Of a stretch of 41,430 bases of DNA, positions 3,560-35,000 are shown piece by piece. The notes beneath the pieces are model-generated. The model had not been told where the DNA came from and made no database searches. It was given only the letters and a program-made list of their open reading frames with translations. A program made the position numbers and the translations under genes. The stretch's first letter is position 1. Each line of letters begins with the position of its first letter. Source of the stretch: Solirubrobacteraceae bacterium (GTDB lineage: Bacteria; Actinomycetota; Thermoleophilia; Solirubrobacterales; Solirubrobacteraceae); NCBI GenBank assembly GCA_036388715.1, contig DASVRH010000405.1:1-41430 (forward strand), written 5' to 3'.

Positions 3560-5458
3560 GTGGCCGCCATCGTCGTCCTGCAGGCGCTCGTCCTGCGCGT
3601 CCTGCTCGCCGACCGGCCGTTCGAGGGGATCGGCCGGCCCGCGGCGATCGCGATCGGCGCCTTCTCGTGCTTCGCGGTCTGGCAGCTGCTCTCGGCGTCG
3701 TGGTCGGACAGCACCGGCCGCGCGCTCGTCGAGTTCGACCGCACCCTGCTCTACCTGGTCACGCTCGTCCTGTTCGCCTCGCTGGGGCGGACGCCCGAGC
3801 GGATCGCCTGGCTCATCCGGCTGCTGGCGCTCGGGATGGTCGCCGTCTGCGTCGCGGGGCTGCTGTCGCGCACGCTCCCCGAGCTGGTGAGCGTCTCCAC
3901 CGACTACTCGGTCGACCGGCTCAGCTACCCGGTGACGTACTGGAACGCGCTCGGCCTGCTCGCCGCGCTCGCGATCGTGCTCTGCCTGCACCTGACGTGC
4001 AGCGCCAGCGAGCCGCGGGCGTCGCGGATCCTCGCCGCGGCGGCGCTGCCGGTGCTCGCCGGCACGCTGATCCTCACGTACTCGCGCGGGGGGATCCTGA
4101 TCGCGATCGTCGGCGTCGTCGCCTACTCGCTGCTCGGCCGCCCGCGCACCTGGCTGACCGGCGTCGCCGCGACAGGCCCGTTCGTCGCGATCGCCGTGGC
4201 GTCCGCCTACGGGGCGGAGGAGCTCACGGCCGACGACTACGCGACGAACGGGATCGAGGCCGGCGAGGGCGTCGCGACGACCGTCGCGCTGTGCGCGATC
4301 GCGGCGGCCGTCCTGCGCGCCGTGTTCGTCGTGCTGGTCGACCGGCGGCTGGTCCGCGCCCGGCTCGCGCCGCTGCGCCGGCTCGGCGTCAAGCCGTGGA
4401 TGGCCTGGTCGGGCGGGACCGTCGTCGTCCTCGTGGTGGCGCTCGCCGCCGGCTTGCCCGGGAAGATCGAGACGCAGTACGACCGCTTCGTGTCGGGGAA
4501 CGAGGGGCCCGTCGGCGACACGCGCGACCGCCTGACCGACCCGGCGAACGCCGGCCGCATCCCGGAGTGGGAGGCGGCGGTGCGCGGGTGGAAGGACCAA
4601 CCGCTGCGCGGCCAGGGCGCCGGGATGTACCAGCTCGACTTCTACGAGCGCCGCGACGAGGCGCGGTCGACGACGGTCACCGACGGGCACTCGCTCTACC
4701 TCGAGACGCTCGACGAGCTGGGGCTCGTCGGCGCGGTGCTGCTCCTCGTCGTGCTCGGGTCGATCCTGGTCGCGTTCGCGCGCGGCCTGGGCGGCCGTTG
4801 GCGGGCGCGCTACGGCGCGCTGCTCGCGGTCGGGCTCGGATGGGTCCTCGCCGCGGGCATCGACTGGCACTGGGAGATGCCCGTCGTCACCGCTTGGCTG
4901 TTCGCCGCCGGCGGGCTCGCGCTGGCGCGGCCCCTCGGCACGAGCGGTCGCCCGCCCATGGGCAGCAGCAACCGCGCGATCATCGCCGTCGCGTGGCTCA
5001 TCGCGGCGGTGACGCCGTTCCTCGTCCTGACCTCGTCCTCCCGCGTCCGCGACGCGGGTGCGGACTTCGCGCGCGGCGACTGCACCCCGGCGCGTCAGAG
5101 CGCCTTCGACGCGCTCGACTACCTGTCCGCGCGGCCCGAGCCGTTCGCGATCGTCGGCTTCTGCGCGCTGCTCGACGACCTGCCGCGCGCGGCGGTGCCG
5201 GCCATGCGCGAGGCCGTCTCGCGCGACCCGCGCAGCTGGGAGTACCGGCTCGGCCTGGCGACCGCGCTGGCGGCGGCGGGCCAGGACCCGGGGCCGGATG
5301 CAAAGGAGGCGCTGCGGCGCAACCCGCTCGATCCGCTCGTGCGCTCCTCGACGAGCAAGCTGCTGGCGGCGACGACGGAGAGCGAGCGCATCGAGGCGGG
5401 CCGCGATGTCTTCGCCGACCTCTTCTACAGCTACAAGCTGTCGATCCAGCACCTCTAG
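3560..5458 (+). CDS. O-antigen ligase/Wzy_C family polytopic membrane protein with a C-terminal helical (TPR-like) soluble extension
   Basis: It has many TM helices, a TYSRGGILIAIVG segment and the GQGAGMY...DGHSLYLETLDELGLVG motif typical of the Wzy_C domain. A TM-like in-frame segment (AGLLALPAALTVYVAFEEGGFF) continues upstream of the GTG at 3560 with no ATG/GTG/TTG, so the true start may be non-canonical and further upstream. Confidence 0.8.
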   Translation: MAAIVVLQALVLRVLLADRPFEGIGRPAAIAIGAFSCFAVWQLLSASWSDSTGRALVEFDRTLLYLVTLVLFASLGRTPERIAWLIRLLALGMVAVCVAGLLSRTLPELVSVSTDYSVDRLSYPVTYWNALGLLAALAIVLCLHLTCSASEPRASRILAAAALPVLAGTLILTYSRGGILIAIVGVVAYSLLGRPRTWLTGVAATGPFVAIAVASAYGAEELTADDYATNGIEAGEGVATTVALCAIAAAVLRAVFVVLVDRRLVRARLAPLRRLGVKPWMAWSGGTVVVLVVALAAGLPGKIETQYDRFVSGNEGPVGDTRDRLTDPANAGRIPEWEAAVRGWKDQPLRGQGAGMYQLDFYERRDEARSTTVTDGHSLYLETLDELGLVGAVLLLVVLGSILVAFARGLGGRWRARYGALLAVGLGWVLAAGIDWHWEMPVVTAWLFAAGGLALARPLGTSGRPPMGSSNRAIIAVAWLIAAVTPFLVLTSSSRVRDAGADFARGDCTPARQSAFDALDYLSARPEPFAIVGFCALLDDLPRAAVPAMREAVSRDPRSWEYRLGLATALAAAGQDPGPDAKEALRRNPLDPLVRSSTSKLLAATTESERIEAGRDVFADLFYSYKLSIQHL

Positions 5459-5499
5459 GACTTGCGCCGCACCTCACGGTGCGGATATGAACTCCTTGC

Positions 5500-6063
5500 A
5501 TGAAGACGACCTTGCTGTTTGCCGCGACCTGCGCCTCGGCGCTCGCGATGACCGGGCTCGCCGGGGCCGCCACGAGCACGGCGACCACCAGCGAGCTGCT
5601 GTTCTTCGGCGCGACGCGCGGGTGCGAGGCCGGCCAGGCGCCGCCCTGCATCGCGGTGAACACCGTCGACTACGACTACGACGGCGTCCGCACCGAGCTC
5701 GAGGTGTGCGTCAGCGGCGCCGACCAGGGCTGCGCGCAGGTGCCGCTCTCCGCGCTGAAGGTCGACTCCTCGCGGCGCTCGGCGTCGGCGACGGTGCCGG
5801 TCACGCTCATGCACTTCAACCCGGACGACACGTTCACCGCCCGCCTGGCCACGGTCACGCTCGGCTTCCAGGCGGGGTCCGGGGCGCTGCAGAACACGAA
5901 GACGGTGACGACCGGGGTCAACGGCGCCGGATGCCGCGTCCGCTACACGACGGTGGCGAAGCTGTGGAACGGCACCCTCCGCGCCACGCTCGACGGCGCG
6001 ACCCACGCGGGCGCCGCCCAGCTCGGGACCTACCAGATCACCGACCGCACCAAGTCCTGCTAG
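5500..6063 (+). CDS. Secreted hypothetical protein (signal peptide, Cys-containing)
   Basis: The N-terminus MKTTLLFAATCASALAMTGLAGAAT is signal-peptide-like. The amino-acid composition is coherent and non-shadow. No family recognised. Confidence 0.6.
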   Translation: MKTTLLFAATCASALAMTGLAGAATSTATTSELLFFGATRGCEAGQAPPCIAVNTVDYDYDGVRTELEVCVSGADQGCAQVPLSALKVDSSRRSASATVPVTLMHFNPDDTFTARLATVTLGFQAGSGALQNTKTVTTGVNGAGCRVRYTTVAKLWNGTLRATLDGATHAGAAQLGTYQITDRTKSC

Positions 6064-6464
6064 CCGGTCGCGGGCGGCTGGCCGGCGCAGCAGCCCTCGA
6101 TCACGAGGACGTTGCCCTTCGTCGCGCCGCGCCATGACCGGTCCGGGCTCACGGTCACGCGGTAGCGGGCGACGTCGCCCGACTTGTACCTGACCACGCA
6201 GGTCCACGGGTTGCGCAGCTCGCCGCCGGCGTTCGTCGTGCAGCGCGCCGAGCGCCCGCGGCCCCCGCCGGAGCCGGGCAGCGCGTTCGGCGCCCGGATC
6301 ACCGAGGCCTCGAGCTCCGCGGGGCGGACCGGCGACTGCCGCGACTGGTCGAGGACGAACGCGTCGCCGGGATCGCGGGCGGTCATCGCGAGCGCCGTGC
6401 CGGCGACGCCGGCGGCGAGGGCCGGGGCGACGAGCAGGACTGGACTTATGGTTGGTTTGCGCAT
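6060..6464 (-). CDS. Exported or membrane-anchored hypothetical protein
   Basis: ATG start, with MRKPTISPVLLVAPALAAGVAGTALA as a signal/anchor. It is divergent from the sigma-factor gene. No family recognised. Confidence 0.5.
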   Translation of the reverse strand: MRKPTISPVLLVAPALAAGVAGTALAMTARDPGDAFVLDQSRQSPVRPAELEASVIRAPNALPGSGGGRGRSARCTTNAGGELRNPWTCVVRYKSGDVARYRVTVSPDRSWRGATKGNVLVIEGCCAGQPPATG

Positions 6465-6493
6465 TCTCCGGCTTCAGGAATCATGACGGCTCG

Positions 6494-6979
6494 ATGCGCG
6501 ACCGCGATTTCGAGCGCCTGTACGAGGAGCATGCCCAGGGCCTGTTCGGCTTCCTGGCGTACCGGACCGGCGACCGCATCCTCGCGGAGGACCTCGTGGC
6601 GGACACGTTCGAGCGGGTTCTGCGCTCCCGCGCGCGGTTCGACCCGCGCAAGGGCCGCCAGAAGGCGTGGGTCTACGCCATCGCGCTGAACCTGCTGCGC
6701 GACAGCGCCCGCCGCACGCAGACGGAGAGCCGCGCCCTCGAGGCGGCCACCGTCGGCGCGGGCCCCGCCGAGGCGTGGCCGCACGAGGCGCTCGACGAGC
6801 GCGACCAGCTCAGGCGCGCGATGGAGCGGCTCTCGCAGGAGGAGCGCGACGTGGTCGCGCTACGGTTCGGCGCGGACCTTCCCGTCAAGGACATCGCCAC
6901 CACGATCGGCGAGTCCGTGACGACGACGGAAGGACGGCTTTACCGAGCTTTGCGCAAGCTGAAGGGCGAGCTGTCGTGA
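6494..6979 (+). CDS. ECF-type RNA polymerase sigma-70 family factor
   Basis: Region 2 reads FERLYEEHAQGLFGFLAYRTGDRILAEDLVADTFERV...WVYAIALNLLRD. Region 4 reads LSQEERDVVALRFGADLPVKDIATTIGESVTTTEGRLYRALRKL. ATG at 6494 is preferred over the TTG at 6452 used by the track. Confidence 0.88.
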   Translation: MRDRDFERLYEEHAQGLFGFLAYRTGDRILAEDLVADTFERVLRSRARFDPRKGRQKAWVYAIALNLLRDSARRTQTESRALEAATVGAGPAEAWPHEALDERDQLRRAMERLSQEERDVVALRFGADLPVKDIATTIGESVTTTEGRLYRALRKLKGELS

Positions 6980-7006
6980 GGGGTACGGGCGAAAAGGTCG
7001 TACATC

Positions 7007-7021
7007 TGCCGAATTTCGGCA
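7007..7021. promoter_or_regulatory. Perfect 7-1-7 palindrome TGCCGAA-T-TTCGGCA in the sigma/epimerase intergenic region
   Basis: Read directly from the sequence. It sits 28 nt after the sigma stop and 89 nt before the ATG at 7110. It could be an operator or a weak hairpin; function unknown. Confidence 0.3.
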
Positions 7022-7109
7022 CAGCGGCTCAGACCGCCGTTATCTTCGCCGCTCGGCGTGGCCCGTTCCCCCGCGTCGCGGACCTGCACCACCACCGGAG
7101 ACCAAGCAC

Positions 7110-8093
7110 ATGAGCAGTGATCTGATCGTCGTCGCCGGGGGCGGCGGATTCATTGGCGGCCACCTCGCCAAGACCCTTCTCGACCAGGGCTTCCGCGTCC
7201 GTTCGGTCGACGTCAAGCCGACGGACGAGTGGTACCAGGTCCACGGCGAGGCCGAGAACCTCGTCCTCGACCTCCGCCTCGCGGACGCCTGCGAGCAGGC
7301 CCTCGACGGCGCCGACGAGGTCTACCAGCTGGCCGCCGACATGGGCGGGATGGGCTTCATCGAGAACAACAAGGCCCTCTGCATGCTGTCGGTGCTCGTG
7401 AACACCCACATGCTCCAGGCCGCGGTGAAGCACGACCTGAAGAAGTTCTTCTACTCGTCCTCGGCGTGCGTGTACGCCGGCGACAAGCAGACCGACCCGG
7501 AGAACCCGGGCCTCAAGGAGAGCGACGCCTACCCGGCGATGCCGGAGGACGGCTACGGCTGGGAGAAGCTCTTCAGCGAGCGCATGTGCCGCCACTTCCG
7601 CGAGGACTTCGGCCTCTACACCCGCGTCGCCCGCTACCACAACGTCTACGGCCCCGAGGGCACCTGGACGGGCGGGCGCGAGAAGGCGCCGGCCGCGATC
7701 TGCCGCAAGGTCGCCGAGGCCAAGCTCACGGGCCGCCACGAGATCGAGATCTGGGGCGACGGCGAGCAGACGCGCAGCTTCATGTACATCGACGACTGCA
7801 CGTACGGCACGCAGGCGATCCTGAACTCGGACATCCTCGAGCCGATCAACCTCGGCAGCGACGAGATGGTCTCGATCAACCAGCTCGTCGACATCGTCGA
7901 GGGCATCGCCGGCATCAAGCTCGAGCGCCAGTACAACCTCGACGCGCCGAAGGGCGTGCGCGGCCGCAACAGCGACAACACGCTCATCTCGGAGCTCATG
8001 GGCTGGGCGCCCAGCATCACGCTGCAGGAAGGCCTCGAGAAGACGTACGCGTGGATCTACGACCAGGTCTCGGCCTCGGTCGCCGCCGCCTGA
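7110..8093 (+). CDS. GDP-mannose 3,5-epimerase homologue (extended SDR)
   Basis: Long colinear matches to my memory of plant GME: LAADMGGMGFI, FFYSSSACVY, LKESDAYPA, YGWEKL, YHNVYGPEGTWTGGREKAPAAICRK, WGDGEQTRSF, EPINLGSDEMVSIN and GVRGRNSDNTLI. A GGAGA Shine-Dalgarno lies 10 nt upstream of the ATG. Confidence 0.85.
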   Translation: MSSDLIVVAGGGGFIGGHLAKTLLDQGFRVRSVDVKPTDEWYQVHGEAENLVLDLRLADACEQALDGADEVYQLAADMGGMGFIENNKALCMLSVLVNTHMLQAAVKHDLKKFFYSSSACVYAGDKQTDPENPGLKESDAYPAMPEDGYGWEKLFSERMCRHFREDFGLYTRVARYHNVYGPEGTWTGGREKAPAAICRKVAEAKLTGRHEIEIWGDGEQTRSFMYIDDCTYGTQAILNSDILEPINLGSDEMVSINQLVDIVEGIAGIKLERQYNLDAPKGVRGRNSDNTLISELMGWAPSITLQEGLEKTYAWIYDQVSASVAAA

Positions 8094-8113
8094 GCGCCTC
8101 ACGGGGGAAAGCA

Positions 8114-9073
8114 GTGCCGGTCACAGTCATCTTCGGTGGCAGCGGGTTCATCGGCTGCCATCTCGCGAACGAGCTGGCCCGGGCCGGCGAGACGGTGGTC
8201 CTCGCGGACCTCGAGCCGCCTCGCCTGCCCGTGCCGCCGGACGTGACGTTCGTGCGGCGCGACGTGCGCGAGCCGATCGGGCGGATCGACGGCGTCGAGC
8301 GGCCGGATCTCGTGGTCAACCTGGCCGCCGTGCACCGCACGCCGGGGCACGAGGACCACGAGTACCACGACACGAACGAGAACGGCGCGCGGAACGTCAC
8401 GGCGTACTGCGAGGAGGAGGGCGTGGCCCGTCTCTGGTTCACCAGCTCGATCGCCGTCTACGGCCCGGGCGAGGAGCCCAAGGACGAGGACAGCGAGCTC
8501 ACGCCGGTCAGCGCGTACGGCAAGTCCAAGGTGCGCGCCGAGGAGATCCACGCCGAGTGGGCCCGCCGCGCCGAAGGCCGCCGCCTCGTCGTCGTGCGGC
8601 CGGCCACGGTGTTCGGCCCGGGCGAGGGCGGCAACTTCACCCGCCTGGCCAAGAGCCTGCGGACGCGCACCTTCGTGTACCCGGGCCGGCGGGAGACGCG
8701 CAAGGCGTGCGGCTACGTCGACGACCTCGCCGGGAGCCTCCTGTACATGGAGCAGTTCGCGGATCCGGTCGTGACCTACAACTTCGGCTACCCGACGCCG
8801 CCGACGACCGAGGAGATCGTCGAGGCGTTCCGGCGCGTCGGCGGCTTCGGCCGGCCCGTGGGCACGGTGCCGCTCGGCCCGATCCTCGTCGTCGCCAAGG
8901 GCCTGCACCGCGCCGGCCTGAAGACCTTCGACCCGGCGCGGGTCGTGAAGCTCGTGCACTCGACGAACATCGTTCCCAAGCAGCTCGTCGAGCGCCGCTA
9001 CTCGTACCGGACCAACCTCGACACTGCACTGGAGCGGTGGTATCGCGAGGACCCCGACGGGGCCTTCGTCTGA
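8114..9073 (+). CDS. NAD-dependent epimerase/dehydratase family protein
   Basis: GTG at 8114 has GGGGGAAAG just upstream and gives VPVTVIFGGSGFIGCHLANEL... with a YGKSK catalytic motif. The track ORF starting at 7229 is an in-frame read-through artefact that overlaps the previous gene. Confidence 0.8.
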   Translation: MPVTVIFGGSGFIGCHLANELARAGETVVLADLEPPRLPVPPDVTFVRRDVREPIGRIDGVERPDLVVNLAAVHRTPGHEDHEYHDTNENGARNVTAYCEEEGVARLWFTSSIAVYGPGEEPKDEDSELTPVSAYGKSKVRAEEIHAEWARRAEGRRLVVVRPATVFGPGEGGNFTRLAKSLRTRTFVYPGRRETRKACGYVDDLAGSLLYMEQFADPVVTYNFGYPTPPTTEEIVEAFRRVGGFGRPVGTVPLGPILVVAKGLHRAGLKTFDPARVVKLVHSTNIVPKQLVERRYSYRTNLDTALERWYREDPDGAFV

Positions 9074-9078
9074 TCGCC

Positions 9079-10305
9079 ATGGACATCCTCATCACCAGCA
9101 GCTACTACTGGCCGGAGCTGACCGGCAACGCGCCCTACGTCACGGGCATGGCGGAGTACTTCGCCGAGCGTCACCGCGTCGTCGTCGCGACCGCGTACCC
9201 GCACTACCCGCAGTGGGAGCCGCAGATGAAGCGGCGCCCGCGGCACGTCGAGCACCAGAACGGCGTCGAGATCCAGCGCCGCTTCCACTACGTCCCGCGC
9301 TCCCAGTCGGCGGCCAAGCGCGCGGTCTACGAGGCGACGATGTTCGCCGGCGGCCTGACCGCCCTGCGCCCGGGGTGGCGACCCGACGTGATCCTCGGCG
9401 TCATGCCGAGCCTGGCCAGCAGCACGCACGCCCGCGTCGCGGCACGGCTCCACAAGCGCCCCTACGGCCTCGTCTTCCACGACCTGATGGGCGAGGGCGC
9501 GCGCCAGAGCGGCGTCAGCGGCGGCGGCCGCGTCGCGGACATCGTCACGAAGGCCGAGATCGGCCTGGCGCGCGGCGCGAAGCGCATCGCCGTGTACGCC
9601 GACGGCATGCGCCGGTACTTCGAGGACGGCGGGGTGCCCGCCGACAAGATCGACCGCGTCCGGCCGTGGACGCTGAACTGGAACCCGACGGTCGACCGCG
9701 AGGAGATGCGGCGGCGCCTGGGCTGGAACGGCGAGTTCATCTGCGTGCACGCCGGCAACATGGGCCACAAGCAGGGCCTCGACAACGTGCTCGACGCCGC
9801 CGCCAAGGCGAAGGACCCCGACGTCCGCTTCGTCCTCGCGGGCGACGGCAACGAGCGGGCGCGGCTCCAGGCGCGAGCTCGCGAGATGGGCCTGAGGAAC
9901 CTCCTCTTCATCGAGCCGATGCCGTGGGGCGAGTACGAGTCGATGCTCATGGCCGCCGACGTTCTCGTCGTCAACCAGCGCCCGACGGTGGGCGAGATGT
10001 CGTTTCCGTCGAAGCTGACGTCCTACTTCCCCGCCGGGCGGCCGGTCGTGGCGGCCGTCGCGGGCGACGCCGACACGGCAGCCGAGGTGCGCCGCTCGGA
10101 GGCGGGCGTCGTCGTCGACCCGAGCCGCCCCGAGGACCTGGCCGCGACGATCGAGGACATCAAGGGCTCACCCGATCGCGGCGAGGCGCTCGGCGCGGCG
10201 GGCCGTCACTACGCGGAGAGCGTGCTGTCGCGTGAGGCGATCCTCCGCGAGTACGACCAGTTCATCGCCCGGCTGGCTCCGGGCGCCGGGCACGGGAGCG
10301 GCTGA
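9079..10305 (+). CDS. GT4-family glycosyltransferase (WcaI-like)
   Basis: MDILITSSYYWPELTGNAPYV... is typical of WcaI-like N-termini. The C-terminal GT1/GT4 core reads FVLAGDGNERARL...VNQRP...FPSKLTSYFPAGRPVV. Confidence 0.85.
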   Translation: MDILITSSYYWPELTGNAPYVTGMAEYFAERHRVVVATAYPHYPQWEPQMKRRPRHVEHQNGVEIQRRFHYVPRSQSAAKRAVYEATMFAGGLTALRPGWRPDVILGVMPSLASSTHARVAARLHKRPYGLVFHDLMGEGARQSGVSGGGRVADIVTKAEIGLARGAKRIAVYADGMRRYFEDGGVPADKIDRVRPWTLNWNPTVDREEMRRRLGWNGEFICVHAGNMGHKQGLDNVLDAAAKAKDPDVRFVLAGDGNERARLQARAREMGLRNLLFIEPMPWGEYESMLMAADVLVVNQRPTVGEMSFPSKLTSYFPAGRPVVAAVAGDADTAAEVRRSEAGVVVDPSRPEDLAATIEDIKGSPDRGEALGAAGRHYAESVLSREAILREYDQFIARLAPGAGHGSG

Positions 10306-10307
10306 GG

Positions 10308-11369
10308 GTGGACGTCGCTCGGCTCAAGCGCGGCGTGTCGGGGAGGCTCTTCACCCGCCGGCGCCTGCCCTTCCCGAGCGACGCCGTCGTCCCGATGGAC
10401 TCGACCTCGGACGTCCTGCTGCGCTTCAGCCGCACGCTGCACGAGTTCAAGCCGCCCGTCTGGTCGCAGGAGGTCGCGTTCGCCAGCGAGATGAGCGCGC
10501 GCGGCCGCGCGTTCGCGGTGACGAGCGAGCCCGGCGAGATCTTCGGCAAGTCGGTCATGTGGTACCACCGCGACGACCTCGTGAAGCCGCGGCTGTGGGA
10601 CTACGCGAAGCAGATGCAGGAGCTGATCGCGGGGATCGAGGGGCAGGGCAACCGCACCTTCAACTCCTCCGGCGAGGTCCGCTTCTGGGAGAACAAGGGC
10701 TACATGCACCGGCGCCTCGACGAGATCGGCGCGCCGACGCCGCGGACGCGTCTGCTGACCGCCGACACGTGGCGGTCGGCCGAGTTCGACCTCGAGCCGC
10801 TGCTCATCAAGGAGGAGCACTCGTCGAGCAGCAAGGGCGTGCAGCACTTCCGGACGGCCGCGGACGCGCGCCGGTACGTCGAGGGCTACGCCTTCCGCCC
10901 CGGCGAGAGCCTCGTCATGCAGGAGGTCGTGCCGGGCGCGACGAAGGACCTGAGGCTGACCATGGTCGGCGACCGGATGATCGAGTCGGCGACGTACTGG
11001 CGGATCAAGAGCCCCGAGGCGCTGGCCCGCAGCGAGTGGACGACCACCGCGACCTCGAACGAGTCGACGGTCGTGCACGGCGAGGTCCCCGAGGGCGCCG
11101 TGAAGGCGGCGGCCCGGTACATGCGCGATCTCGGGATCCGCACGGCGGGCTTCGACTTCATGTTCCGCGACGACGACGTCACGGGGCCGCCGCTCGTCCT
11201 CGAGTTCAGCCCGCTCTACGACCCGAACCCACCCAAGCCGCGCCGGTACGACGACTGGTCGTACAAGCGCTACAAGAGCAACCCGTACATCAGCGAGGGC
11301 TACTTCTTTCAGCAGCACCTGGCGTTCCGCGAGATCGCGGGCCAGGTCTTGGACCAGGAGATGTATTGA
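10308..11369 (+). CDS. ATP-grasp fold ligase (candidate amidoligase)
   Basis: ATP-grasp-like blocks are present: NKGYMHRRLDEIGAPTPRT, LLIKEEHSSSSKGVQHF, LVMQEVVPGATKDLRLTMVGD and GFDFMF...LVLEFSP. GTG at 10308 lies 2 nt after the upstream stop, which suggests translational coupling. Confidence 0.7.
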   Translation: MDVARLKRGVSGRLFTRRRLPFPSDAVVPMDSTSDVLLRFSRTLHEFKPPVWSQEVAFASEMSARGRAFAVTSEPGEIFGKSVMWYHRDDLVKPRLWDYAKQMQELIAGIEGQGNRTFNSSGEVRFWENKGYMHRRLDEIGAPTPRTRLLTADTWRSAEFDLEPLLIKEEHSSSSKGVQHFRTAADARRYVEGYAFRPGESLVMQEVVPGATKDLRLTMVGDRMIESATYWRIKSPEALARSEWTTTATSNESTVVHGEVPEGAVKAAARYMRDLGIRTAGFDFMFRDDDVTGPPLVLEFSPLYDPNPPKPRRYDDWSYKRYKSNPYISEGYFFQQHLAFREIAGQVLDQEMY

Positions 11370-11371
11370 CC

Positions 11372-12574
11372 ATGTCCGTGCAGAGCAGCGCCCAGATCAC
11401 GCCGCGCGAAGAGGAGATCCTCGCCACGCTCAAGGAGATCAAGGCGGCGTCGGGCTCGCACTCGCCGAGCCTCTTCGCGCTGAGCGACCGCATTCCCGAC
11501 CTCCAGGTCCGCATCGACGCGTGCTTCCTCTCCAACCCCTACGCGACCGACCTCTTCATCGACCGGCTGACGTCCGAGCTCGTCGAGACCGGCGCGATGC
11601 GCAAGGTTCTCGAGGCGTACCCCTCGCCGAACAACCACGTCGCGTCGCTGCTCTCGCCGACGCTCGGCGTCGACCCGGCGCAGATCTTCGTCTGCAACGG
11701 CGCGATCGAGGCGATCCAGGCGGCGATGCACCGCTTCGCCGGCACGCGGGTCGGCGTCATCCTGCCGACGTTCTCGCCCTACTACGAGTACCTGCGGCCC
11801 GACCAGCAGGTCTTCTACTACAAGCTCTCGCGCGAGAACGACTTCGCCCTCGACGTCGACCACTTCCGCGAGTGGGTCCTGGCCAACGAGCTCGACACGG
11901 TCTGCCTGATCAACCCGAACAACCCGAACGGCGGCTACGTCCCGACGAAGCTGATGCGCGGGCTGCTCGAGTCGCTCGCGCACCTCGAGCTGGTCGTCCT
12001 CGACGAGAGCTTCATCGACTTCGCGTGGGAGGACGCCGAGCGCCACCGGACGAGCCTCACGGCGGACGCGGCGGCGCAGGAGAACGTGATGCTCGTCAAG
12101 AGCATGTCGAAGGACTTCGGCGTGGCCGGCCTGCGCGCGGGCTACGCGATCATGTCGGCGGACCGCGTCCAGTCGCTGGTGGGCAACGGCTTCCTGTGGA
12201 ACATCAGCGGCCTGACCGAGTACTTCTTCCGCCTCTTCACCGACCCGGAGTTCCAGGCCGACTACTCGTGGGCCCGCCTGCGCTACCTCGCCGAGGCCGA
12301 GCCGTTCTTCGGCGCGCTCGGCGCCATCGGGGGGCTGCGCGCGTACCCGAGCAAGGCCAACTTCGTCCTCGTCGAGCTCGAGGACACGGTGCCGATCGAG
12401 CTGGTCGCGCCGCTCCTCCTCGTCCGCCACGGCGTCTACGTGCGCGACTGCCGCGACAAGATCGGCCTCGAGGACGGCCAGTACATCCGCGTCGCGAGCC
12501 GCAAGGGCGTCGAGAACGACGAGATCGTCGCGGCGTTCGAGTCGATCGTGAGCGCATGCCGCACCGACGGCTGA
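11372..12574 (+). CDS. PLP-dependent class I/II aminotransferase-fold enzyme (HisC/CobD-like aminotransferase or decarboxylase)
   Basis: It has NPNNPNGGYV, a VVLDESFIDF motif and the SMSKDFGVAGLRAGY PLP-lysine motif. The ATG lies 2 nt after the upstream stop. Confidence 0.85.
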   Translation: MSVQSSAQITPREEEILATLKEIKAASGSHSPSLFALSDRIPDLQVRIDACFLSNPYATDLFIDRLTSELVETGAMRKVLEAYPSPNNHVASLLSPTLGVDPAQIFVCNGAIEAIQAAMHRFAGTRVGVILPTFSPYYEYLRPDQQVFYYKLSRENDFALDVDHFREWVLANELDTVCLINPNNPNGGYVPTKLMRGLLESLAHLELVVLDESFIDFAWEDAERHRTSLTADAAAQENVMLVKSMSKDFGVAGLRAGYAIMSADRVQSLVGNGFLWNISGLTEYFFRLFTDPEFQADYSWARLRYLAEAEPFFGALGAIGGLRAYPSKANFVLVELEDTVPIELVAPLLLVRHGVYVRDCRDKIGLEDGQYIRVASRKGVENDEIVAAFESIVSACRTDG

Positions 12575-13203
12575 CGCCCCGCCGCCTCGCCGCCGCCGCC
12601 ACCCGTCCGATCCGCCACCTCCCCGACCGCCGCGCGGCCGTGCGCGCCGCGGCCGCCGTCGCGGCCGCGTGCCCCGGCGAGGTCCGCGTGTGCTGGGACC
12701 TCGACAACACGCTCGTCGACTCCGGCCGCCTGCTGCGCGAGGGCGTGCCGCTCGACGAGGCCGTCCGCAGCGCGGACCCGGTCGCCGGGATGCTCGACTT
12801 CCAGCGCGCGCTCGCCGCGGCGCTCCCCGGCGCCGGCCACTTCGTGCTCAGCGTCCGCGCGCGGGGGATGCGCGACGACACCCTCGCGTGGATCGCGCGC
12901 CACGGGCTCGAGCTCGCGCCCGACGCGGTGGCGCTCGTGCGCAGCCCCGCCGACAAGCCCGCGGTCTGGCGCGCGCTCGCGCGGGGAGGGAAGCTCGTCG
13001 TCGTCGACGACCTCAGCCACGGCCATGAGGGATCGGCCATCACGCCGTACGGACGGCTGGCCGAGCAGGCGCGCCGGATCGCGGACGCCTACGTCGACCT
13101 GGCAGCGATCGGGGCGATCGCCGAGGAGCCGGCGAGCGCCGCGGCGGCCGCCGAGCGCGTCGCGGCGGCGGTGGGCGGCGCGGCTTCGCCTAGTGCTTCT
13201 TGA
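12556..13203 (+). CDS. HAD-superfamily hydrolase (probable phosphatase)
   Basis: HAD motif I is CWDLDNTLVDS (DxDxT) and the late motif is KLVVVDDLSHG. ATG at 12556 overlaps the upstream gene by 19 nt. The track ORF starting at 11521 is a read-through artefact. Confidence 0.7.
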   Translation: MPHRRLTPRRLAAAATRPIRHLPDRRAAVRAAAAVAAACPGEVRVCWDLDNTLVDSGRLLREGVPLDEAVRSADPVAGMLDFQRALAAALPGAGHFVLSVRARGMRDDTLAWIARHGLELAPDAVALVRSPADKPAVWRALARGGKLVVVDDLSHGHEGSAITPYGRLAEQARRIADAYVDLAAIGAIAEEPASAAAAAERVAAAVGGAASPSAS

Positions 13204-16200
13204 CGCGCGCCCAGTCGCGGCCGCGCTGCTTCTGCCAGCGCAGCGGCGTGGACAGGCTCGACTCGACCAGCATCGTCCGTGACGTCGTGGCCGCCGCCGG
13301 CGCGACGGCCGGGTCCGTCCACGTCGACGTGCCCATCGCCGCGCCGTAGAGGTCGCCTGCCTCGGTGAGGCCCGCGGACTGCGACTGCGCGAACTGGGCG
13401 GCCTTCGTGCTGCCGGCGAGCCCGGTCGCGGTCCCGTACATCACGTTGACCATGCCGGAGTCGACGAACTGGAACGCCTCGTTCGGCGCGCCGCCGACGA
13501 GGTCGGACCGCCGGTCGCCGTCGTAGTCGCCGGTGGTGATCGCCGAGCCGAAGTGGTCGCCCGCCTGCGCGAGGCCCTCCCACGAGTTCTGCGACCACTC
13601 CTGCGCGTCCTGCGGGCGGAACCGGGTCAGCCCGCTCGCGCCGCCGTACATGACGTTCACGACCCCCGCCCCGGCGATGCCGTAGTAGTTCTCGTTCGGA
13701 GCGGCCGCGGCGAGATCCTCGCGGCCGTCGGCGTTGAAGTCGCCGGCGGTCAGCGCGCCGCCCCAGCCGTCGCCCGGCTCCTCCGCGCCGGCGGCGTCGG
13801 CCTGGCGCAGCTGTTGCGGGTTCGTGAACCCGGTCGTCGTGCCGTACAGGACGTTGACGACGCCGGCGCCGGCGTTGCCCGACCAGTCCTCGCCCGGCGC
13901 GCCGGCCACCAGCTCCGACCGGCCGTCGCCGTTGAAGTCCGCCGTCGTGAGCGCCGCGCCGAAGCGGTCGCTCTGCTCGGGCAGCCCGGCGGCGTGCTCC
14001 TGGGGGATCTGTCGCGCGCGGACGCTGCCGGCAAGCCCCGACGCGGTGCCGTACATCACGTTGACCATCCCGGACGCGGTCGCCTGGTAGTCCTCGCCGG
14101 GCGCGCCGGCGACGAGGTCCGCGCGGCCGTCGCCGTCGAAGTCCCCGGCCGCGAGCGCCGTGCCGAAGCGGTCGCCGTCCTGAGCGAGGCCCTCGAACGA
14201 GTTCTGCGACCACTCCTGGGCCTTGCCGCGGTCGTTGCCGTCGACGCCGTTCGCCGATCCGTACTGGACGTTGACCACGCCCGCGTCGGGCACGCCGTAG
14301 AAGTTCTCGCCCGGCGCGCTCGCGACGAGGTCGTCGCGGCCGTCGCCGTCGAAGTCGCCCGCGGCCAGCGCCGCCCCGAAGCGGTCACCCGCCTCGTTGG
14401 CGCCGGCGACGTCGCTCTGGAAGAACTGGCGCGGGTTCGGCCCGCCGTTGAGCCCGGTGGCCGAGCCGTACAGCACGTTGACGGCGCCCGCGCGCGCGAG
14501 GCCGGCGAGGTCCTCGCCCGGCGCGCCGACGGCGAGGTCGCTGTAACCGTCGTTGTTGAAGTCGCCGGTGGTCAGCGCCGCGCCCCACTGGTCGCCCTGC
14601 TCGCTGAGGCCGAACGCGGCCGACTGATGGAACTGCAGCTCGCCCGGCCCCGGCTTGCCGAGACCGCTCGCGCCGCCGTACTTCACGTTGACCACGCCGG
14701 CGTCCTCGAGGCCCCACAGCTCCTCGCCCGGGGCGCCGATCGCGAGGTCGTCGTAGCCGTCGCCGTTGAAGTCCGCCGCCGTGCCGAGCTGACGCGTGAA
14801 GGTCGCGCGGTACGTCGCGCTGGTGGCCGGCGTGGTGAGCACGTGCGACTTCGCGCCGCCGTCCGACCACGAGCCGAACACGTAGCGGCGGGTCCCCTTG
14901 AGCTGCGTCGGCGCGTCGACGGTGAGGCCCCAGCCCTGCCACGAGGTGATCGTCTCGGGCCCGGTGAGCGTCCGCTCGTTGACCTTGACCTTGAGGCCGG
15001 TGGGCGCCGTCTCGAACGTCAGCGTGACCTTGTTGGGGTCGAAGTCCTGCACCACGGTCGAGCTCAGGCCCGACGAGTCGGTCGCGGTGAGCCGGATCTC
15101 CAGGTTGGAGTTCGTGGCGGCCGAGAAGTCCTCCGGCGCGGGGCCCTTGAAGCTGATGTTGTTGCCCGTGACGGGCTGGACGTAGGGGTGGTAGTGCGTG
15201 TTGTGATGCAGCTTCACCTCCCACTTGAGGCTGGTGGCCGGGAGGGCGCCGTCCTCGGCGTCGTTGGCGTGGCCCGTCAGCGTGTACTGCTGGCCGACCG
15301 CGAACTTCTGCGACGTCGTGGGCGCGTCGATCACCGGCACCGGCTTGTTGCCGACCTCGATCGTGACCGTGTCGGTGTCCGTCGCCCCGGCCGTGTCGGT
15401 CACGGTCAGCTTCGCCTGGTAGGTGCCGCTCTGCGTGTAGGTGTGCGACGTCGTCGCGCCGGTGCCCGTCCCGCCGTCGCCGAACTCCCAGGCGTACGTC
15501 AGCCTGTTGCCGTCGGCGTCCGAGCTGGCCGTCCCGTCGAACTGCACGCTCAGGGGCGCGACGCCCGTCGACGGGGTGCCCGACGCGGAGGCCACCGGCC
15601 TGCGGTTGCCGCCGCCGACGTAGACGACGCGCCGGACCTGGTTCGGCTGCCCGGGCTGGACGCTCGCGCCGTGCAGGTAGTAGAGCGCCTGGCCGCCGGA
15701 CGGCTTGGGGCCGAACTCCATGTCGAGGACGCTCCAGAGTCCGTCGGCCCAGAACGTGACGGCCCCGGTCTCGGCCGGCGCATCCTTCCGCCACACCTTG
15801 CCGCACACGTAGTCGCCGTAGAGGTAGTCGCGGTCGTACTCGACCGGCCACACGCCGGTGGGCACGAAGACGCCGCCGGTGATCGAGCTGCAGCCCGTGT
15901 TGTGGTGGTACGTCGCGACCGGGTCGGTGATCCCGGCGGGCGGGCCAGGGCAGTTCGTCGACATCGCGGTCGGGCACGCGCCCTCGCGCATCGGCCACCC
16001 GTAGTTCGCGCCGAGCGCGCCCGCGTCGACCTCCTCCCAGGTGTCCTGGCCGACGTCGTTGAAGAAGAACCGCGTCGTCGCGCTCTCCTGGTCGAACGCG
16101 GCCTTGTACGGGTTGCGCACGCCGGCCGCGTAGATCTCCTGGCACTTCCTGCTCGCGTCCGACGTGAAGCCGATCGTGCCGCACTGGACGCTGTCGGCGC

Positions 16201-16873
16201 CGAGGTACGGGTTCGTGTCCGGGATCCCGCCCGTGCGGGTGATCCGCACGACCTTGCCCTGCAGCGTGTTGAGCTCCTGCCCGGCCGTGTTCAGCTCACC
16301 GCAGGCGTTCTGGTTCTTGTAGTAGCAGAGGCCGTCGCCCACCATCACGTAGAGCAGGCCGTCCTTGCCGAAGTGGACGTCGCCGCCGTTGTGCGCCCCC
16401 TGGAACGCCACGATGTTGTCGAGCAGGACGGTCTCGCTGGCGGGGTCGATGACGTTGCCGGTCATCTTGAAGCGCGACAGCCGGTTGACGGGCCCGGTCA
16501 GCAGCGTCGAGCCGCACGTCCCGTGCTTGTTGAACGTGTAATAGACGTACAGGAAGCCGTTGGTCGCGAAGCTCGGGTCGGGCGCGATGCCCATGAGCCC
16601 CTCCTCGCGGTTGCCGCAGACCTTGTTGCCGAGGCTCAGCGCCGGCGTGGTGAGCCGTACGTCGTTCTGGATGACGTCGACGTTGCCGTTCATCGTCGAC
16701 ACGAGGATCCGGCCGTCGGGCAGGATCACCATCGCGCTCGGGAAGTTCGGGATCTCGGCCACCACCTCGTTCTGGAAGCCGGCGGGGACGGCGCCCGGCG
16801 CGGGCGCCGCGCAGAGGCAGGCGGCCACGACAGCGATCATCGTGACCAGGGCGGACCTGAGAGCGGTGTTCAT
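13190..16873 (-). CDS. Secreted multidomain protein: PQQ-type soluble sugar dehydrogenase beta-propeller + PKD domain + conserved middle module + 7 FG-GAP repeats
   Basis: Signal peptide is MNTALRSALVTMIAVVAACLCAAPAPG. GSDH-like motifs include LPDGRILV, EEGLMGIAPDP, HNGGDVHFGKDGLLYVMVGDG, LQGKVVRI and AAGVRNPY. The PKD block reads LSVQFDGTASSDADGNRLTYAWEFGDGG. Seven DFxGDGxxDL...GAPGE repeats follow. Confidence 0.9.
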   Translation of the reverse strand: MNTALRSALVTMIAVVAACLCAAPAPGAVPAGFQNEVVAEIPNFPSAMVILPDGRILVSTMNGNVDVIQNDVRLTTPALSLGNKVCGNREEGLMGIAPDPSFATNGFLYVYYTFNKHGTCGSTLLTGPVNRLSRFKMTGNVIDPASETVLLDNIVAFQGAHNGGDVHFGKDGLLYVMVGDGLCYYKNQNACGELNTAGQELNTLQGKVVRITRTGGIPDTNPYLGADSVQCGTIGFTSDASRKCQEIYAAGVRNPYKAAFDQESATTRFFFNDVGQDTWEEVDAGALGANYGWPMREGACPTAMSTNCPGPPAGITDPVATYHHNTGCSSITGGVFVPTGVWPVEYDRDYLYGDYVCGKVWRKDAPAETGAVTFWADGLWSVLDMEFGPKPSGGQALYYLHGASVQPGQPNQVRRVVYVGGGNRRPVASASGTPSTGVAPLSVQFDGTASSDADGNRLTYAWEFGDGGTGTGATTSHTYTQSGTYQAKLTVTDTAGATDTDTVTIEVGNKPVPVIDAPTTSQKFAVGQQYTLTGHANDAEDGALPATSLKWEVKLHHNTHYHPYVQPVTGNNISFKGPAPEDFSAATNSNLEIRLTATDSSGLSSTVVQDFDPNKVTLTFETAPTGLKVKVNERTLTGPETITSWQGWGLTVDAPTQLKGTRRYVFGSWSDGGAKSHVLTTPATSATYRATFTRQLGTAADFNGDGYDDLAIGAPGEELWGLEDAGVVNVKYGGASGLGKPGPGELQFHQSAAFGLSEQGDQWGAALTTGDFNNDGYSDLAVGAPGEDLAGLARAGAVNVLYGSATGLNGGPNPRQFFQSDVAGANEAGDRFGAALAAGDFDGDGRDDLVASAPGENFYGVPDAGVVNVQYGSANGVDGNDRGKAQEWSQNSFEGLAQDGDRFGTALAAGDFDGDGRADLVAGAPGEDYQATASGMVNVMYGTASGLAGSVRARQIPQEHAAGLPEQSDRFGAALTTADFNGDGRSELVAGAPGEDWSGNAGAGVVNVLYGTTTGFTNPQQLRQADAAGAEEPGDGWGGALTAGDFNADGREDLAAAAPNENYYGIAGAGVVNVMYGGASGLTRFRPQDAQEWSQNSWEGLAQAGDHFGSAITTGDYDGDRRSDLVGGAPNEAFQFVDSGMVNVMYGTATGLAGSTKAAQFAQSQSAGLTEAGDLYGAAMGTSTWTDPAVAPAAATTSRTMLVESSLSTPLRWQKQRGRDWARVKKH
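13325..14773 (-). repeat. Seven tandem FG-GAP (integrin-alpha-like) coding repeats of 66-71 aa each
   Basis: Counted from the translation: 70, 69, 71, 68, 66, 71 and 68 residues. Each starts D[FY][ND]xDG and contains APGE/APNE, VNVxYG and a [RQHGL][FWY]G[AGST]A element (DRFGAA, DQWGAA, DGWGGA, DHFGSA, DLYGAA). Seven repeats predict a 7-bladed propeller. About 200-bp periodicity is visible in the DNA. Confidence 0.85.
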
Positions 16874-22693: not shown

Positions 22694-23632
22694 TCAGCGC
22701 AGGCGCGCCCGGTGCCACGCGACCTGCTCGCGCAGGCCGTTGGCGACGTTCCACTTCGGGTCGTAGCCCAGCTCCTCGCGCGCGAGCGAGATGTCGGCGG
22801 CGGTGTCGCGCGCGTCGCCGCGCTGGCGCTCCTCGTGGCGCACCTCGAGGCCGCCGGCCTCCTCGCGGATCACGTCGAGCACCTCGAGCATCGACACGCG
22901 CGAGCCGCCGCCGAGGTTGTACGCGCGGCCGGGCACGCCCTTCTCCGCCGCGAGGATGGTGCCCTCGACGGTGTCGGCGACGAAGGTGAAGTCGCGCGTC
23001 TGGCGCCCGTCCCCGAAGAGGCGGAACTCGCGCTCGTGCAGCCCCGCCTCGATCGCGCGGTGGAAGGCCATGTCGGGGCGCTGGCGCGGCCCGTAGACGG
23101 TGAAGTAGCGGAGGCTCAGCACCGGGACGTCGAAGCTCCGGTAGTACAGGTAGGACAGGTGCTCGCCGAGCGCCTTCGTGGCGCCGTACGGCGACACGGG
23201 CCGCAGGATCTGGTCCTCCGACGTGGGCAGCGCCTCGGCGTCGCCGTAGACCGACGACGAGGAGACGAAGACGAACTTCTGCAGCTCGGTCTGCCGCGCC
23301 GCCTCGAGCAGCCGCTGGAGCACCGTGACGTTCAGCTGCGTGTAGACGTCGAAGCTCTGACCCCAGCTCGCGCGTACGCCCGCCTGCGCGGCCAGGTGGA
23401 ACACGACGTCGACGTCCGCGAGGATCGCCGTCAGGTCCAGGTCGAGGATGTCCTGCTCGTGGTAGGTGCAGCGATGGTGGCCCGCGAAGGCCTGCGCGTT
23501 GCGCACCTTCGCCGCCGGCGAGTAGTAGGTCGTCAGCGAGTCGCACGCGACGACCTCCCAGCCGCGCTGGAGGCACGTCTCGGTCAGATGGGATCCCACG
23601 AACCCCGCCGCGCCGGTGATGAAGGCCCGCAT
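22694..23632 (-). CDS. NAD-dependent sugar-nucleotide epimerase (UDP-glucuronate/UDP-glucose 4-epimerase-like)
   Basis: MRAFITGAAGFVGSHL, SSSSVYGD, SPYGATK, LRYFTVYGPRQRPDMA and GDGRQTRDFTFVAD are typical of the WbpP/Cap1J-like epimerase branch. Confidence 0.85.
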   Translation of the reverse strand: MRAFITGAAGFVGSHLTETCLQRGWEVVACDSLTTYYSPAAKVRNAQAFAGHHRCTYHEQDILDLDLTAILADVDVVFHLAAQAGVRASWGQSFDVYTQLNVTVLQRLLEAARQTELQKFVFVSSSSVYGDAEALPTSEDQILRPVSPYGATKALGEHLSYLYYRSFDVPVLSLRYFTVYGPRQRPDMAFHRAIEAGLHEREFRLFGDGRQTRDFTFVADTVEGTILAAEKGVPGRAYNLGGGSRVSMLEVLDVIREEAGGLEVRHEERQRGDARDTAADISLAREELGYDPKWNVANGLREQVAWHRARLR

Positions 23633-28930: not shown

Positions 28931-29563
28931 ATGACCGAGGCCCGCCCTGACCTGGTGGAGATCGAGGGCCTGGGGCGGAGCTTCGGCGCCCGCGAGGTCA
29001 TCCGCCGGCTGGATCTGCGCGTGCCCGCCGGCGCCCGTGTCGCGCTCCGTGGCCCGAACGGCGCGGGCAAGTCCACGGCCCTGCGCTGCGTCGCGGGCAC
29101 GCTCGCGCCCACGCGCGGGACGGTCGCCATCGACGGCTTCGCGGCGGGCAGCGTCCCCGCCCGGCGCCGGATCGGCGTCTCGTTCGCCCAGGAGCGCTCG
29201 TTCCACATGCGGCTGAACGGCCGGGCCAACCTGATCTTCTTCGCCCAGCTGCACCTCGGCAGCCGCCGCGCCGCGGTGCGCGAGGTGGACGCGCTGATCG
29301 AGGAGCTCGACCTGCGGGAGATCGCGCCCCGCCGGCTCGACCAGTGCTCGACCGGCATGGTCCAGCAGCTCGCGATCGCGCGGGCGCTGAGCGCCGACCC
29401 CGACGTGCTCCTGCTCGACGAGCCGACGCGGTCGCTCGACAAGGAGGCGATCGCGCGGTTCTGGGCGGCGATCGACCGGCGCCCGGACGCGGCGGTGCTC
29501 ATCGCGACGCACCGCGACGAGGATCTCGAGAGGTGCGGGAGCATCGTTGACTTCCCGACCTGA
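28931..29563 (+). CDS. ABC transporter ATP-binding protein
   Basis: Walker A is GPNGAGKST, the signature-like motif is CSTGMVQQLAIARAL, and Walker B is LLLDEPTRSLD. Confidence 0.9.
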   Translation: MTEARPDLVEIEGLGRSFGAREVIRRLDLRVPAGARVALRGPNGAGKSTALRCVAGTLAPTRGTVAIDGFAAGSVPARRRIGVSFAQERSFHMRLNGRANLIFFAQLHLGSRRAAVREVDALIEELDLREIAPRRLDQCSTGMVQQLAIARALSADPDVLLLDEPTRSLDKEAIARFWAAIDRRPDAAVLIATHRDEDLERCGSIVDFPT

Positions 29564-32368: not shown

Positions 32369-32545
32369 ATGCCGAAGGCAGAGTATTACGCGCCGTCGCT
32401 CACGACACTCGGGTCCGTGCAGGACCTGACCCTGGGCTCCGGTGGTGGTTTCCCCGACACCTGCGACCTCGCGGTCGGCTCGGTGATCGGCGCCGATCCG
32501 TGCTCCGGTCAGCCGGCGCCGGGCGGCATCGGGACGAAGCCGTAG
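32369..32545 (+). CDS. Lasso-type RiPP precursor peptide (58 aa)
   Basis: AGGAGG lies 4 nt upstream of the ATG. The product is MPKAEYYAPSLTTLGSVQDLTL-GSGGGFPDTCDLAVGSVIGADPCSGQPAPGGIGTKP. The leader fits YxxPxLx3Gx5Tx exactly, and the core starts with Gly1 and has Asp8. Confidence 0.8.
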   Translation: MPKAEYYAPSLTTLGSVQDLTLGSGGGFPDTCDLAVGSVIGADPCSGQPAPGGIGTKP

Positions 32546-32550
32546 GCAGT

Positions 32551-32571
32551 TCCGGCCGCGAACCGGCCGGA
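32551..32571 (+). promoter_or_regulatory. Intercistronic hairpin between the precursor gene and the downstream cyclase-like gene
   Basis: TCCGGCCG cgaac CGGCCGGA forms an 8-bp stem with a 5-nt loop. It starts 6 nt after the precursor stop and ends 6 nt before the ATG at 32578. Confidence 0.55.
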
Positions 32572-32577
32572 CACGCA

Positions 32578-34989: not shown

Positions 34990-35000
34990 GTCCCGTCAGG

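Follow-up and report, generated by a model that had tools for sequence, protein, structure and literature searches.

A candidate ethanolamine-amidation cassette in a Solirubrobacteraceae polysaccharide locus and its relatives in other bacteria

A polysaccharide locus of a Solirubrobacteraceae bacterium (GenBank assembly GCA_036388715.1) raises the question of what an ATP-grasp ligase, a pyridoxal 5'-phosphate (PLP)-dependent enzyme and a HAD-superfamily phosphatase, encoded by three adjacent genes, contribute to the glycan made there. The trio lies at positions 10308-13203 of a 41,430-nt stretch of DNA (contig DASVRH010000405.1, positions 1 to 41,430 of the forward strand), hereafter referred to as the window. 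An earlier reading of this DNA from its letters (the original prediction) had proposed that the trio attaches an amino alcohol in amide linkage to a uronic acid, by analogy with the capsule of Campylobacter jejuni. Of the readings considered, this one is the best supported: we consider it moderately probable that the cassette amidates a glycan carboxylate with ethanolamine in a ligate-then-dephosphorylate scheme. Any specific acceptor sugar is rated lower than the amidation itself. As judged by sequence, the ligase and the phosphatase belong to unannotated families, contained in neither Pfam nor NCBIfam, which are analogous to the Campylobacter enzymes and not homologous with them.

Genes and enzymes of the cassette

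The window has a G+C content of approximately 72%, and a third-position GC frame plot reveals an unbroken run of plus-strand genes from 7110 to 13203. Four open reading frames of this run occupy coding frames in the plot: a GT4 glycosyltransferase (9079-10305), the ATP-grasp ligase (10308-11369, 353 aa), the PLP-dependent enzyme (11372-12574, 400 aa) and the divergent HAD-superfamily phosphatase (12556-13203, 215 aa). The GT4 stop codon (TGA, 10303-10305) is separated by 2 nt from the GTG start of the ligase at 10308, and the stop codon of the ligase (TGA, 11367-11369) by another 2 nt from the ATG of the PLP enzyme at 11372, which is preceded by an AGGAG sequence approximately 12 nt upstream. 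The phosphatase ATG at 12556 lies ahead of the PLP stop codon (TGA, 12572-12574), resulting in a 19-nt overlap. Homologues that match in length and N-terminus back the start codons chosen. The four genes and their tight packing are as the original prediction had described them, and both motifs it had read from the translations, SMSKDFG in the PLP enzyme and DxDxT in the phosphatase, are present.

The PLP-dependent enzyme (Pfam Aminotran_1_2) aligns over residues 15-394 with the structure 6OUX in the PDB (324 bits, E 1.7e-95), compared with 84 and 81 bits for CobD structures and at most 69 bits for HisC structures. The 6OUX sequence is 100% identical to the NCBI protein 'norcobamide biosynthesis serine-O-phosphate decarboxylase [Sulfurospirillum]', and we equate it with SMUL_1544 of Sulfurospirillum multivorans because of this match together with the matching locus annotation. 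SMUL_1544 is annotated as a 'threonine phosphate decarboxylase-like enzyme' in the Sulfurospirillum cobamide operon, where it is located next to CbiB. The window enzyme shares 41% identity with SMUL_1544 over 386 aa, nearly the full length and including the N-terminal region, and its Schiff-base lysine K247 (SMSKDFG) is aligned to the SLSKDFG lysine of 6OUX within a common SxSKDFG motif. With full-length similarity well above that to CobD or HisC and a conserved lysine, the enzyme is, by sequence, of the SMUL_1544/6OUX type, and a grouping with bona fide histidinol-phosphate aminotransferases, which the original prediction had named as the result that would speak against it, was not found. The type of reaction is likely kept at this level of identity, and the enzyme is predicted to convert O-phospho-L-serine to phosphoethanolamine, the same reaction as that of SMUL_1544. 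In contrast to SMUL_1544, with its place in a cobamide operon, the product of the window enzyme is predicted to feed a glycan ligase. The scores to the NCBIfam models for CobD (TIGR01140, 166 bits) and HisC (TIGR01141, 127 bits) remain below the respective cut-offs of 290.55 and 276.55. Furthermore, the closest relatives of SMUL_1544 (47-55% identity) are polysaccharide-locus genes, including Pedobacter genes of the cassette described here, and not cobamide enzymes. A role of the window enzyme in cobamide synthesis was considered and rejected on gene context and the absence of a riboswitch: no cob/cbi or his genes, no threonine kinase and no cobalamin riboswitch were identified within the window.

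The ATP-grasp protein has no Pfam match, and its NCBIfam matches, to RimK, LysX and graspetide maturase models, are weak and far below the cut-offs (25.1 bits against a cut-off of 143.4 for RimK, TIGR00768; 22.4 against 275.6 for LysX, TIGR02144). Its AlphaFold2 model, built with 59 homologues, has a predicted local distance difference test (pLDDT) score of 93.1 and is most similar in Foldseek searches to ArgX, RimK and LysX (E 4e-14, probability 1.0), with template modelling (TM) scores of up to 0.68 on the target. The modelled three-domain fold, the ATP-binding lysines and the Mg-binding acidic residues place the protein in the ATP-grasp superfamily. RimK, LysX and ArgX activate a carboxylate on a large substrate or macromolecule and add a small amine to it. 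The window protein has the K...DxR...D...E catalytic framework in common with these enzymes, but is only ~16% identical to them, bears an additional C-terminal stretch in which a PNPP motif is invariant, has Glu-x-Ser for Glu-x-Asn and is encoded in a glycan context rather than with ribosomal protein S6 or LysW. Invariant residues among 33 sequences from several phyla comprise W127-E128-N129-K130, K168, H171, S172, G177, D214, R216, D283, E299, S301 and N307. One Pedobacter member of the family clears the Pfam RimK model (30.8 bits, cut-off 21). The original prediction would have been undermined by an ATP-grasp protein of RimK type unrelated to glycan loci; the family is structurally closest to RimK and LysX, yet is encoded only inside glycan loci.

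No Pfam, NCBIfam or PDB sequence match was obtained for the HAD-like protein, in the case of Pfam and NCBIfam even at E 5. It nevertheless contains HAD motif I as D48-x-D50-N-T52 (WDLDNTL), motif II as S99, motif III as K134 and motif IV as D151-D152. These four motifs are conserved in nine close homologues, obtained by a word-indexed search, and in 34 wider homologues obtained by a local profile search of the fetched loci; the motif II position is serine in 30 and threonine in seven of the aligned sequences. The AlphaFold2 model (pLDDT 89.5) shows a Rossmann-like alternating order of strands and helices, and its best Foldseek matches are class C acid phosphatases, a deoxyribonucleotidase-like protein and the Pnkp1 phosphatase domain. 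In addition, sub-threshold Pfam matches of its relatives are solely to HAD phosphatase domains (LNS2, HAD_PNKP, APP1_cat and Hydrolase). With motifs I-IV in order and a modelled Rossmann-like fold, the protein is a putative HAD phosphatase, predicted to remove phosphate after ligation.

Linkage of the trio and the Campylobacter precedent

The ATP-grasp family is small: a word-indexed search gave 148 clusters at 90% identity, and a profile search run exhaustively against 1.84 billion representatives gave 111 clusters at E<=1e-30 and 185 at E<=1e-10. It is also rare, with 31 loci encoding a member among 185,579 species genomes. Close relatives (52-74% identity) are from uncultured organisms, namely Solirubrobacterales metagenome-assembled genomes (MAGs) and one Dehalococcoidia MAG, and more distant relatives (28-36%) are from Bacteroidota, Anaerolineae and Acidimicrobiales/Microthrixaceae. 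Cultured Bacteroidota carriers include Pedobacter yulinensis, P. nyackensis DSM 19625, Pedobacter sp. BAL39 and SYP-B3415.

The HAD-like gene adjoins the ATP-grasp gene in 29 of the 31 loci (profile search), and a SMUL_1544-like PLP gene lies within 5 kb of it in approximately 25 (tblastn). This linkage of the three genes in polysaccharide loci spans Solirubrobacterales, Bacteroidota, Chloroflexota and Acidimicrobiia. The gene order is ATP-grasp, PLP, HAD in Solirubrobacterales and PLP, HAD, ATP-grasp in Bacteroidota; such clade-specific orders argue for selection on the co-occurrence of the genes and not for inherited synteny. The flanking genes vary from locus to locus and are always polysaccharide genes, such as those for Wzx, Wzy, Wzz, priming transferases and glycosyltransferases. 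As the trio sits together in the related loci examined that have room for all three genes, the arrangement in the window is not a product of chance. Loci L011 and L030 are interrupted by contig ends or a gap, and an apparent fusion of the HAD-like and ATP-grasp proteins in L030 was dismissed as an artefact, a run of N separating the two genes. All three genes of the trio are broken across reading frames in one long-read MAG (L016, 10001-12706), by either cassette decay or sequencing indels.

Within the literature that could be searched, C. jejuni is the only organism for which the formation of amide-linked amino alcohols on uronic acids has been elucidated. There, Cj1436 turns serine-phosphate into ethanolamine-phosphate by decarboxylation, the C-terminal TupA-like ATP-grasp domain of Cj1438 amidates a chain-attached glucuronate with ethanolamine-phosphate or serinol-phosphate, and Cj1435 removes the phosphate after ligation, which is needed before the next glycosyl transfer (PMC11800397, PMC11800379, PMC12409886). 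The HS:2 glucuronamide pathway of C. jejuni and the window cassette have the same three chemistries in the same predicted order, and both are encoded in surface-polysaccharide loci beside glycosyltransferases.

We compared the proteins directly, using the sequences of Cj1435 and of the ATP-grasp part of Cj1438 (Cj1438C; Cj1438 residues 453-776) from the supplement of PMC11800397. Cj1438C matches the TupA-like family PF14305 at 130 bits and Cj1435 matches PF12710 at 75 bits. In contrast, the window ATP-grasp protein has no PF14305 match, with a BLASTP E of 0.41 and an hhalign probability of 0.8% to Cj1438C, and the window HAD-like protein has no PF12710 match, with a BLASTP E of 10 and an hhalign probability of 0.05% to Cj1435, motif I alone being aligned. 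Homology beyond the superfamily level was rejected for both proteins by BLASTP, Pfam and hhalign, and no Cj1438C homologue was found in any fetched locus searched. The PLP enzyme is 46% identical to an Aliarcobacter PLP enzyme whose gene adjoins a Cj1435 orthologue, a comparison that serves as a stand-in for one with Cj1436. Further differences are the fusion of the Cj1438C domain to a GT2 glycosyltransferase, the lack in the window of a serinol-phosphate aminotransferase of the Cj1437 type, and the type of polysaccharide pathway, which is Wzx/Wzy in the window and ABC-transporter-dependent and 3-deoxy-D-manno-oct-2-ulosonic acid (Kdo)-linked in C. jejuni. The Campylobacter parallel drawn in the original prediction stands as a mechanistic analogy: on these comparisons it is one of chemistry and not of descent, and only the decarboxylase position is filled by a related enzyme.

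Reaction sequence, acceptor and competing explanations

In the proposed sequence, the cassette would act in the cytoplasm as a module that converts a carboxyl group of the polysaccharide repeat unit into a 2-hydroxyethyl (ethanolamine) amide. The PLP enzyme would first convert O-phospho-L-serine, an intermediate of serine biosynthesis and a primary metabolite, to phosphoethanolamine, as its homology to SMUL_1544 suggests. This decarboxylation is placed before amide formation because PLP-dependent decarboxylation needs a free alpha-amine, and because phosphoethanolamine offers only its amine as a ligatable group, the ATP-grasp enzyme must activate the carboxylate of the partner. The ligase would turn this sugar carboxylate, most likely C6 of galacturonate, glucuronate or N-acetylmannosaminuronic acid (ManNAcA) on a lipid-linked oligosaccharide, into an acyl phosphate, and attack by the phosphoethanolamine amine would yield an N-(2-phosphoethyl) uronamide; this step is suggested by the fold, the conserved catalytic residues and the strict gene linkage. 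The HAD phosphatase would then strip the phosphate to leave a neutral amide, as its motifs, its fold and the parallel with Cj1435 indicate, and assembly would proceed via the Wzx/Wzy machinery encoded in the window.

Several observations weigh against this sequence. Given the lack of homology to Cj1438C and Cj1435, the substrates of the ligase and phosphatase are deduced from context only, and the amide product is likewise a prediction. The structural matches of the HAD-like model are weak (best E 8.5e-3, probability 1.0, TM ~0.42), and in the ATP-grasp family the canonical Glu-x-Asn magnesium motif is Glu-x-Ser, with Ser301 replacing Asn. At 41% identity to SMUL_1544, the PLP enzyme may differ from it in its preference for serine-phosphate or threonine-phosphate. 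Furthermore, L023 and L024 (Anaerolineae) and L032 (Sphingobacteriales) encode the HAD and ATP-grasp proteins with no PLP gene in the fetched flanks; such genomes may encode the synthesis of the amine donor at another site, or use a different donor. Finally, only about seven loci encode a UDP-sugar dehydrogenase at a distance of 10 kb or less from the cassette.

The nature of the acceptor is the weakest inference in the chain. Uronic-acid genes occur in the window and near the cassette elsewhere, in line with the original prediction. Two of its three gene assignments hold: the gene at 40377-41321 (-) encodes a UDP-glucuronate decarboxylase (UXS; 360 bits, E 1e-106 to human UXS1), which shows that the organism makes UDP-glucuronate, and the gene at 22694-23632 (-) encodes a UDP-glucuronate 4-epimerase-like short-chain dehydrogenase/reductase (SDR) with 266 bits to 6ZL6/6ZLA, which we take to be the Bacillus cereus UDP-glucuronate 4-epimerase, and 192 bits to MoeE5. 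The third, at 33703-34989 (-), encodes a nucleotide-sugar dehydrogenase as predicted, but one that scores best against UDP-N-acetylmannosamine (UDP-ManNAc) dehydrogenases (Cap5O, 200 bits; Pyrococcus horikoshii UDP-ManNAcA dehydrogenase, 199 bits) rather than UDP-glucose dehydrogenases (83-128 bits), and probably makes UDP-ManNAcA. Together with a neighbouring WecG/TagA-family glycosyltransferase (35001-35912, -), it forms a pair (33703-35912) that is a possible second source of a uronic acid, namely ManNAcA. In 8 of 12 distinct Solirubrobacterales-type loci, an orthologue of the epimerase-like SDR (45-64% identity) is encoded no more than 10 kb from the cassette, and in L004 and L009 immediately beside it. 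In addition, genes for pectate-lyase-fold or beta-helix proteins lie beside the cassette in two distant lineages (L001, 6937-7989 and 12929-15445; L029 of P. yulinensis, 15203-16570), consistent with polymers that contain uronic acids. Because of these epimerase-like orthologues and pectate-lyase-fold genes, galacturonate is favoured as the acceptor, with glucuronate and ManNAcA as alternatives.

The same chemistry could also be directed at a non-hexuronic acceptor, such as a pyruvyl ketal, a nonulosonic acid or a lactyl or amino-acid substituent, or at a nucleotide sugar instead of a lipid-linked glycan. The ATP-grasp sequence holds nothing that identifies the acceptor, uronic-acid genes are not universal within 10 kb of the cassette, and L008 encodes NeuB and a CMP-sugar synthetase near it. 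We nevertheless regard such an acceptor as unlikely in view of the recurrent epimerase-like and pectate-lyase-like neighbours, the use of glucuronate in the sole characterised precedent, C. jejuni, and the fact that no pyruvyltransferase was seen in the window.

An amine other than phosphoethanolamine, for instance aminopropanol-phosphate made from threonine-phosphate, would result in a different amide. The top NCBIfam model for the PLP enzyme is indeed the CobD threonine-phosphate decarboxylase, the identity to SMUL_1544 is modest, and C. jejuni itself employs two different phospho-amines. However, the score to the serine-phosphate decarboxylase is fourfold that to the CobD structures, neither the cassette nor the window encodes a threonine kinase whereas phosphoserine is readily at hand in primary metabolism, and elsewhere the PLP subfamily is found in contexts that call for ethanolamine-phosphate, namely norcobamide synthesis and, in L044, a pair of methyltransferases. 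We consider a different amine improbable.

It is still less probable, in our estimate, that the phosphate is retained, giving a polymer with a phosphoethanolamine amide, and that the HAD enzyme acts otherwise, e.g. on a sugar-phosphate or before ligation. Such a role would fit the weak structural matches of this protein and the arrangement in L019, where no HAD gene separates the PLP gene from the ATP-grasp gene. However, the HAD gene is the tightest partner of the ATP-grasp gene and accompanies it even where the PLP gene is absent, and in C. jejuni the dephosphorylation comes after ligation and is required for the next glycosyl transfer. That the ATP-grasp enzyme works on peptides or proteins, as a ligase of the RimK, LysX or graspetide type, or that the PLP enzyme acts in cobamide or histidine metabolism, the clustering with glycan genes being incidental, is suggested by the nearest structures, the weak NCBIfam matches and the fold common to CobD and HisC, but is highly implausible since every score is far below the family cut-offs, no precursor peptide, LysW-like carrier, cob/cbi/his genes or cobalamin riboswitch were found nearby, and in four phyla the three genes stay together inside polysaccharide loci.

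Amidating a glycan carboxylate with ethanolamine would be of consequence for the cell surface, as amide-linked amino alcohols on uronic acids cancel negative charge and alter the hydration, ion binding and phage, enzyme or immune recognition of surface polysaccharides. If the proposed functions are correct, the cassette provides another amidoligase family, unrelated to the first, and a novel family of HAD phosphatases, to both of which functions could be assigned. It would also provide a simple three-gene genomic marker for uronamide-decorated polysaccharides in soil Actinomycetota, Bacteroidota and Chloroflexota, as well as new enzymes with which uronic-acid polymers could be amidated chemo-enzymatically.

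Related loci and neighbouring genes

The PLP subfamily also occurs with other partners. In Aliarcobacter butzleri (L040/L041, 6662-11149), its gene lies between those for adenylate-forming, CapK-like enzymes and the gene for an orthologue of Cj1435 (39% identity), with two UDP-sugar dehydrogenases, an SDR and a GT4 glycosyltransferase encoded nearby. A CapK-like/PLP/PF12710 trio is also present in a genome whose PLP protein NCBI assigns to Candidatus Kapabacteria bacterium, and the coordinates of this variant trio in L043 are 4652-7822. These trios combine an adenylate-forming CapK-like ligase with a phosphatase of the Cj1435 type, in contrast to the ATP-grasp ligase and different HAD protein of the window, and from their gene content appear to represent a third type of ligase serving this chemistry. 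In a Flavobacteriaceae locus (L042, 5930-10086), the PLP gene is flanked by genes for a PHP phosphoesterase and two proteins without a Pfam family (431 and 298 aa), and the locus also carries WecB, a dehydrogenase and WecG; its gene content may represent a fourth variant with an as yet unrecognised ligase. In L044 (5144-7873), a SMUL_1544-like PLP gene lies between genes for two S-adenosylmethionine-dependent methyltransferases, one of which matches Methyltransf_PK, and could, by its gene content, be part of a bacterial route from phosphoserine via phosphoethanolamine to phosphocholine.

The SMUL_1544-type decarboxylase seems to be a constant core around which differing ligases and phosphatases have been recruited. 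We tentatively suggest, at a little under even confidence, that the ATP-grasp proteins described here constitute a phylum-spanning family of RimK-like glycan amidoligases with their own HAD family, as one of at least three independent solutions around a serine-phosphate decarboxylase (the others being the TupA-like enzyme of C. jejuni and the CapK-like enzymes of Aliarcobacter and the Kapabacteria-assigned genome), and that environmental bacteria have a general, modular way of neutralising acidic polysaccharides, in which they make a phospho-amino-alcohol, ligate it to a sugar acid and dephosphorylate the product. If the prediction is true, SMUL_1544-type enzymes would be general suppliers of phosphoethanolamine, norcobamide synthesis being an offshoot and one of several uses.

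The gene run that contains the cassette opens with a GDP-mannose 3,5-epimerase-like SDR (7110-8093, +; 328 bits to GDP-mannose 3,5-epimerases), which has an orthologue at 93% identity in L004, followed by a second SDR (+) that ends at 9073 and by the GT4 glycosyltransferase (Pfam Glycos_transf_1 and Glyco_trans_4_4). The latter is WcaI-like, scoring 228 bits against the NCBIfam WcaI family and missing its cut-off of 276. WcaI is a GDP-fucose-using transferase, and the combination of the epimerase-like gene with this GT4 suggests, by sequence similarity, that the operon adds an L-galactose or L-gulose residue. GT4 genes are also located immediately upstream of the cassette in L006, L007 and L029 and are not close orthologues of the window GT4. 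Membership of the GT4 gene in the conserved module was rejected, as adjacent GT4s are non-orthologous and are absent upstream of the cassette in L001, L003 and L004; it belongs to the same operon as the cassette but lies outside the conserved cassette.

Just upstream of the operon, the window encodes an extracytoplasmic function (ECF)-type sigma factor (6452-6979, +), a possible dedicated regulator, and another is encoded near the cassette in the closest MAG (L004, 1892-2377). A scan for promoters and terminators returned no promoter and one terminator-like site (13172-13192), no more than expected by chance.

Further downstream, the window encodes two proteins with an Asn_synthase domain and without a glutaminase domain (30280-31536, +, and 32500-33732, +), beside an ABC transporter pair and a gene of unknown function (associated coordinates 28931-30365, +, and 31492-32367, -). 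The role of this pair might lie in another amidation of the polymer, distinct from that of the cassette, or in a small pathway with no relation to it. In both Pedobacter (L029) and L043, the cassette is followed by a gene for full-length AsnB. The window also contains a gene for a CDP-glucose 4,6-dehydratase (35975-37033, +; 431 bits, above the NCBIfam cut-off), whose sequence implies a CDP-linked deoxyhexose in one polymer made at the locus. Finally, two very large proteins (13190-16873, -, and 37047-39563, +) contain glucose/sorbosone-dehydrogenase beta-propeller and PKD domains, one of them with seven FG-GAP repeats, and in a related MAG (L004, 11827-15396) an orthologue of the large beta-propeller/PKD protein is encoded at the corresponding place behind the cassette.

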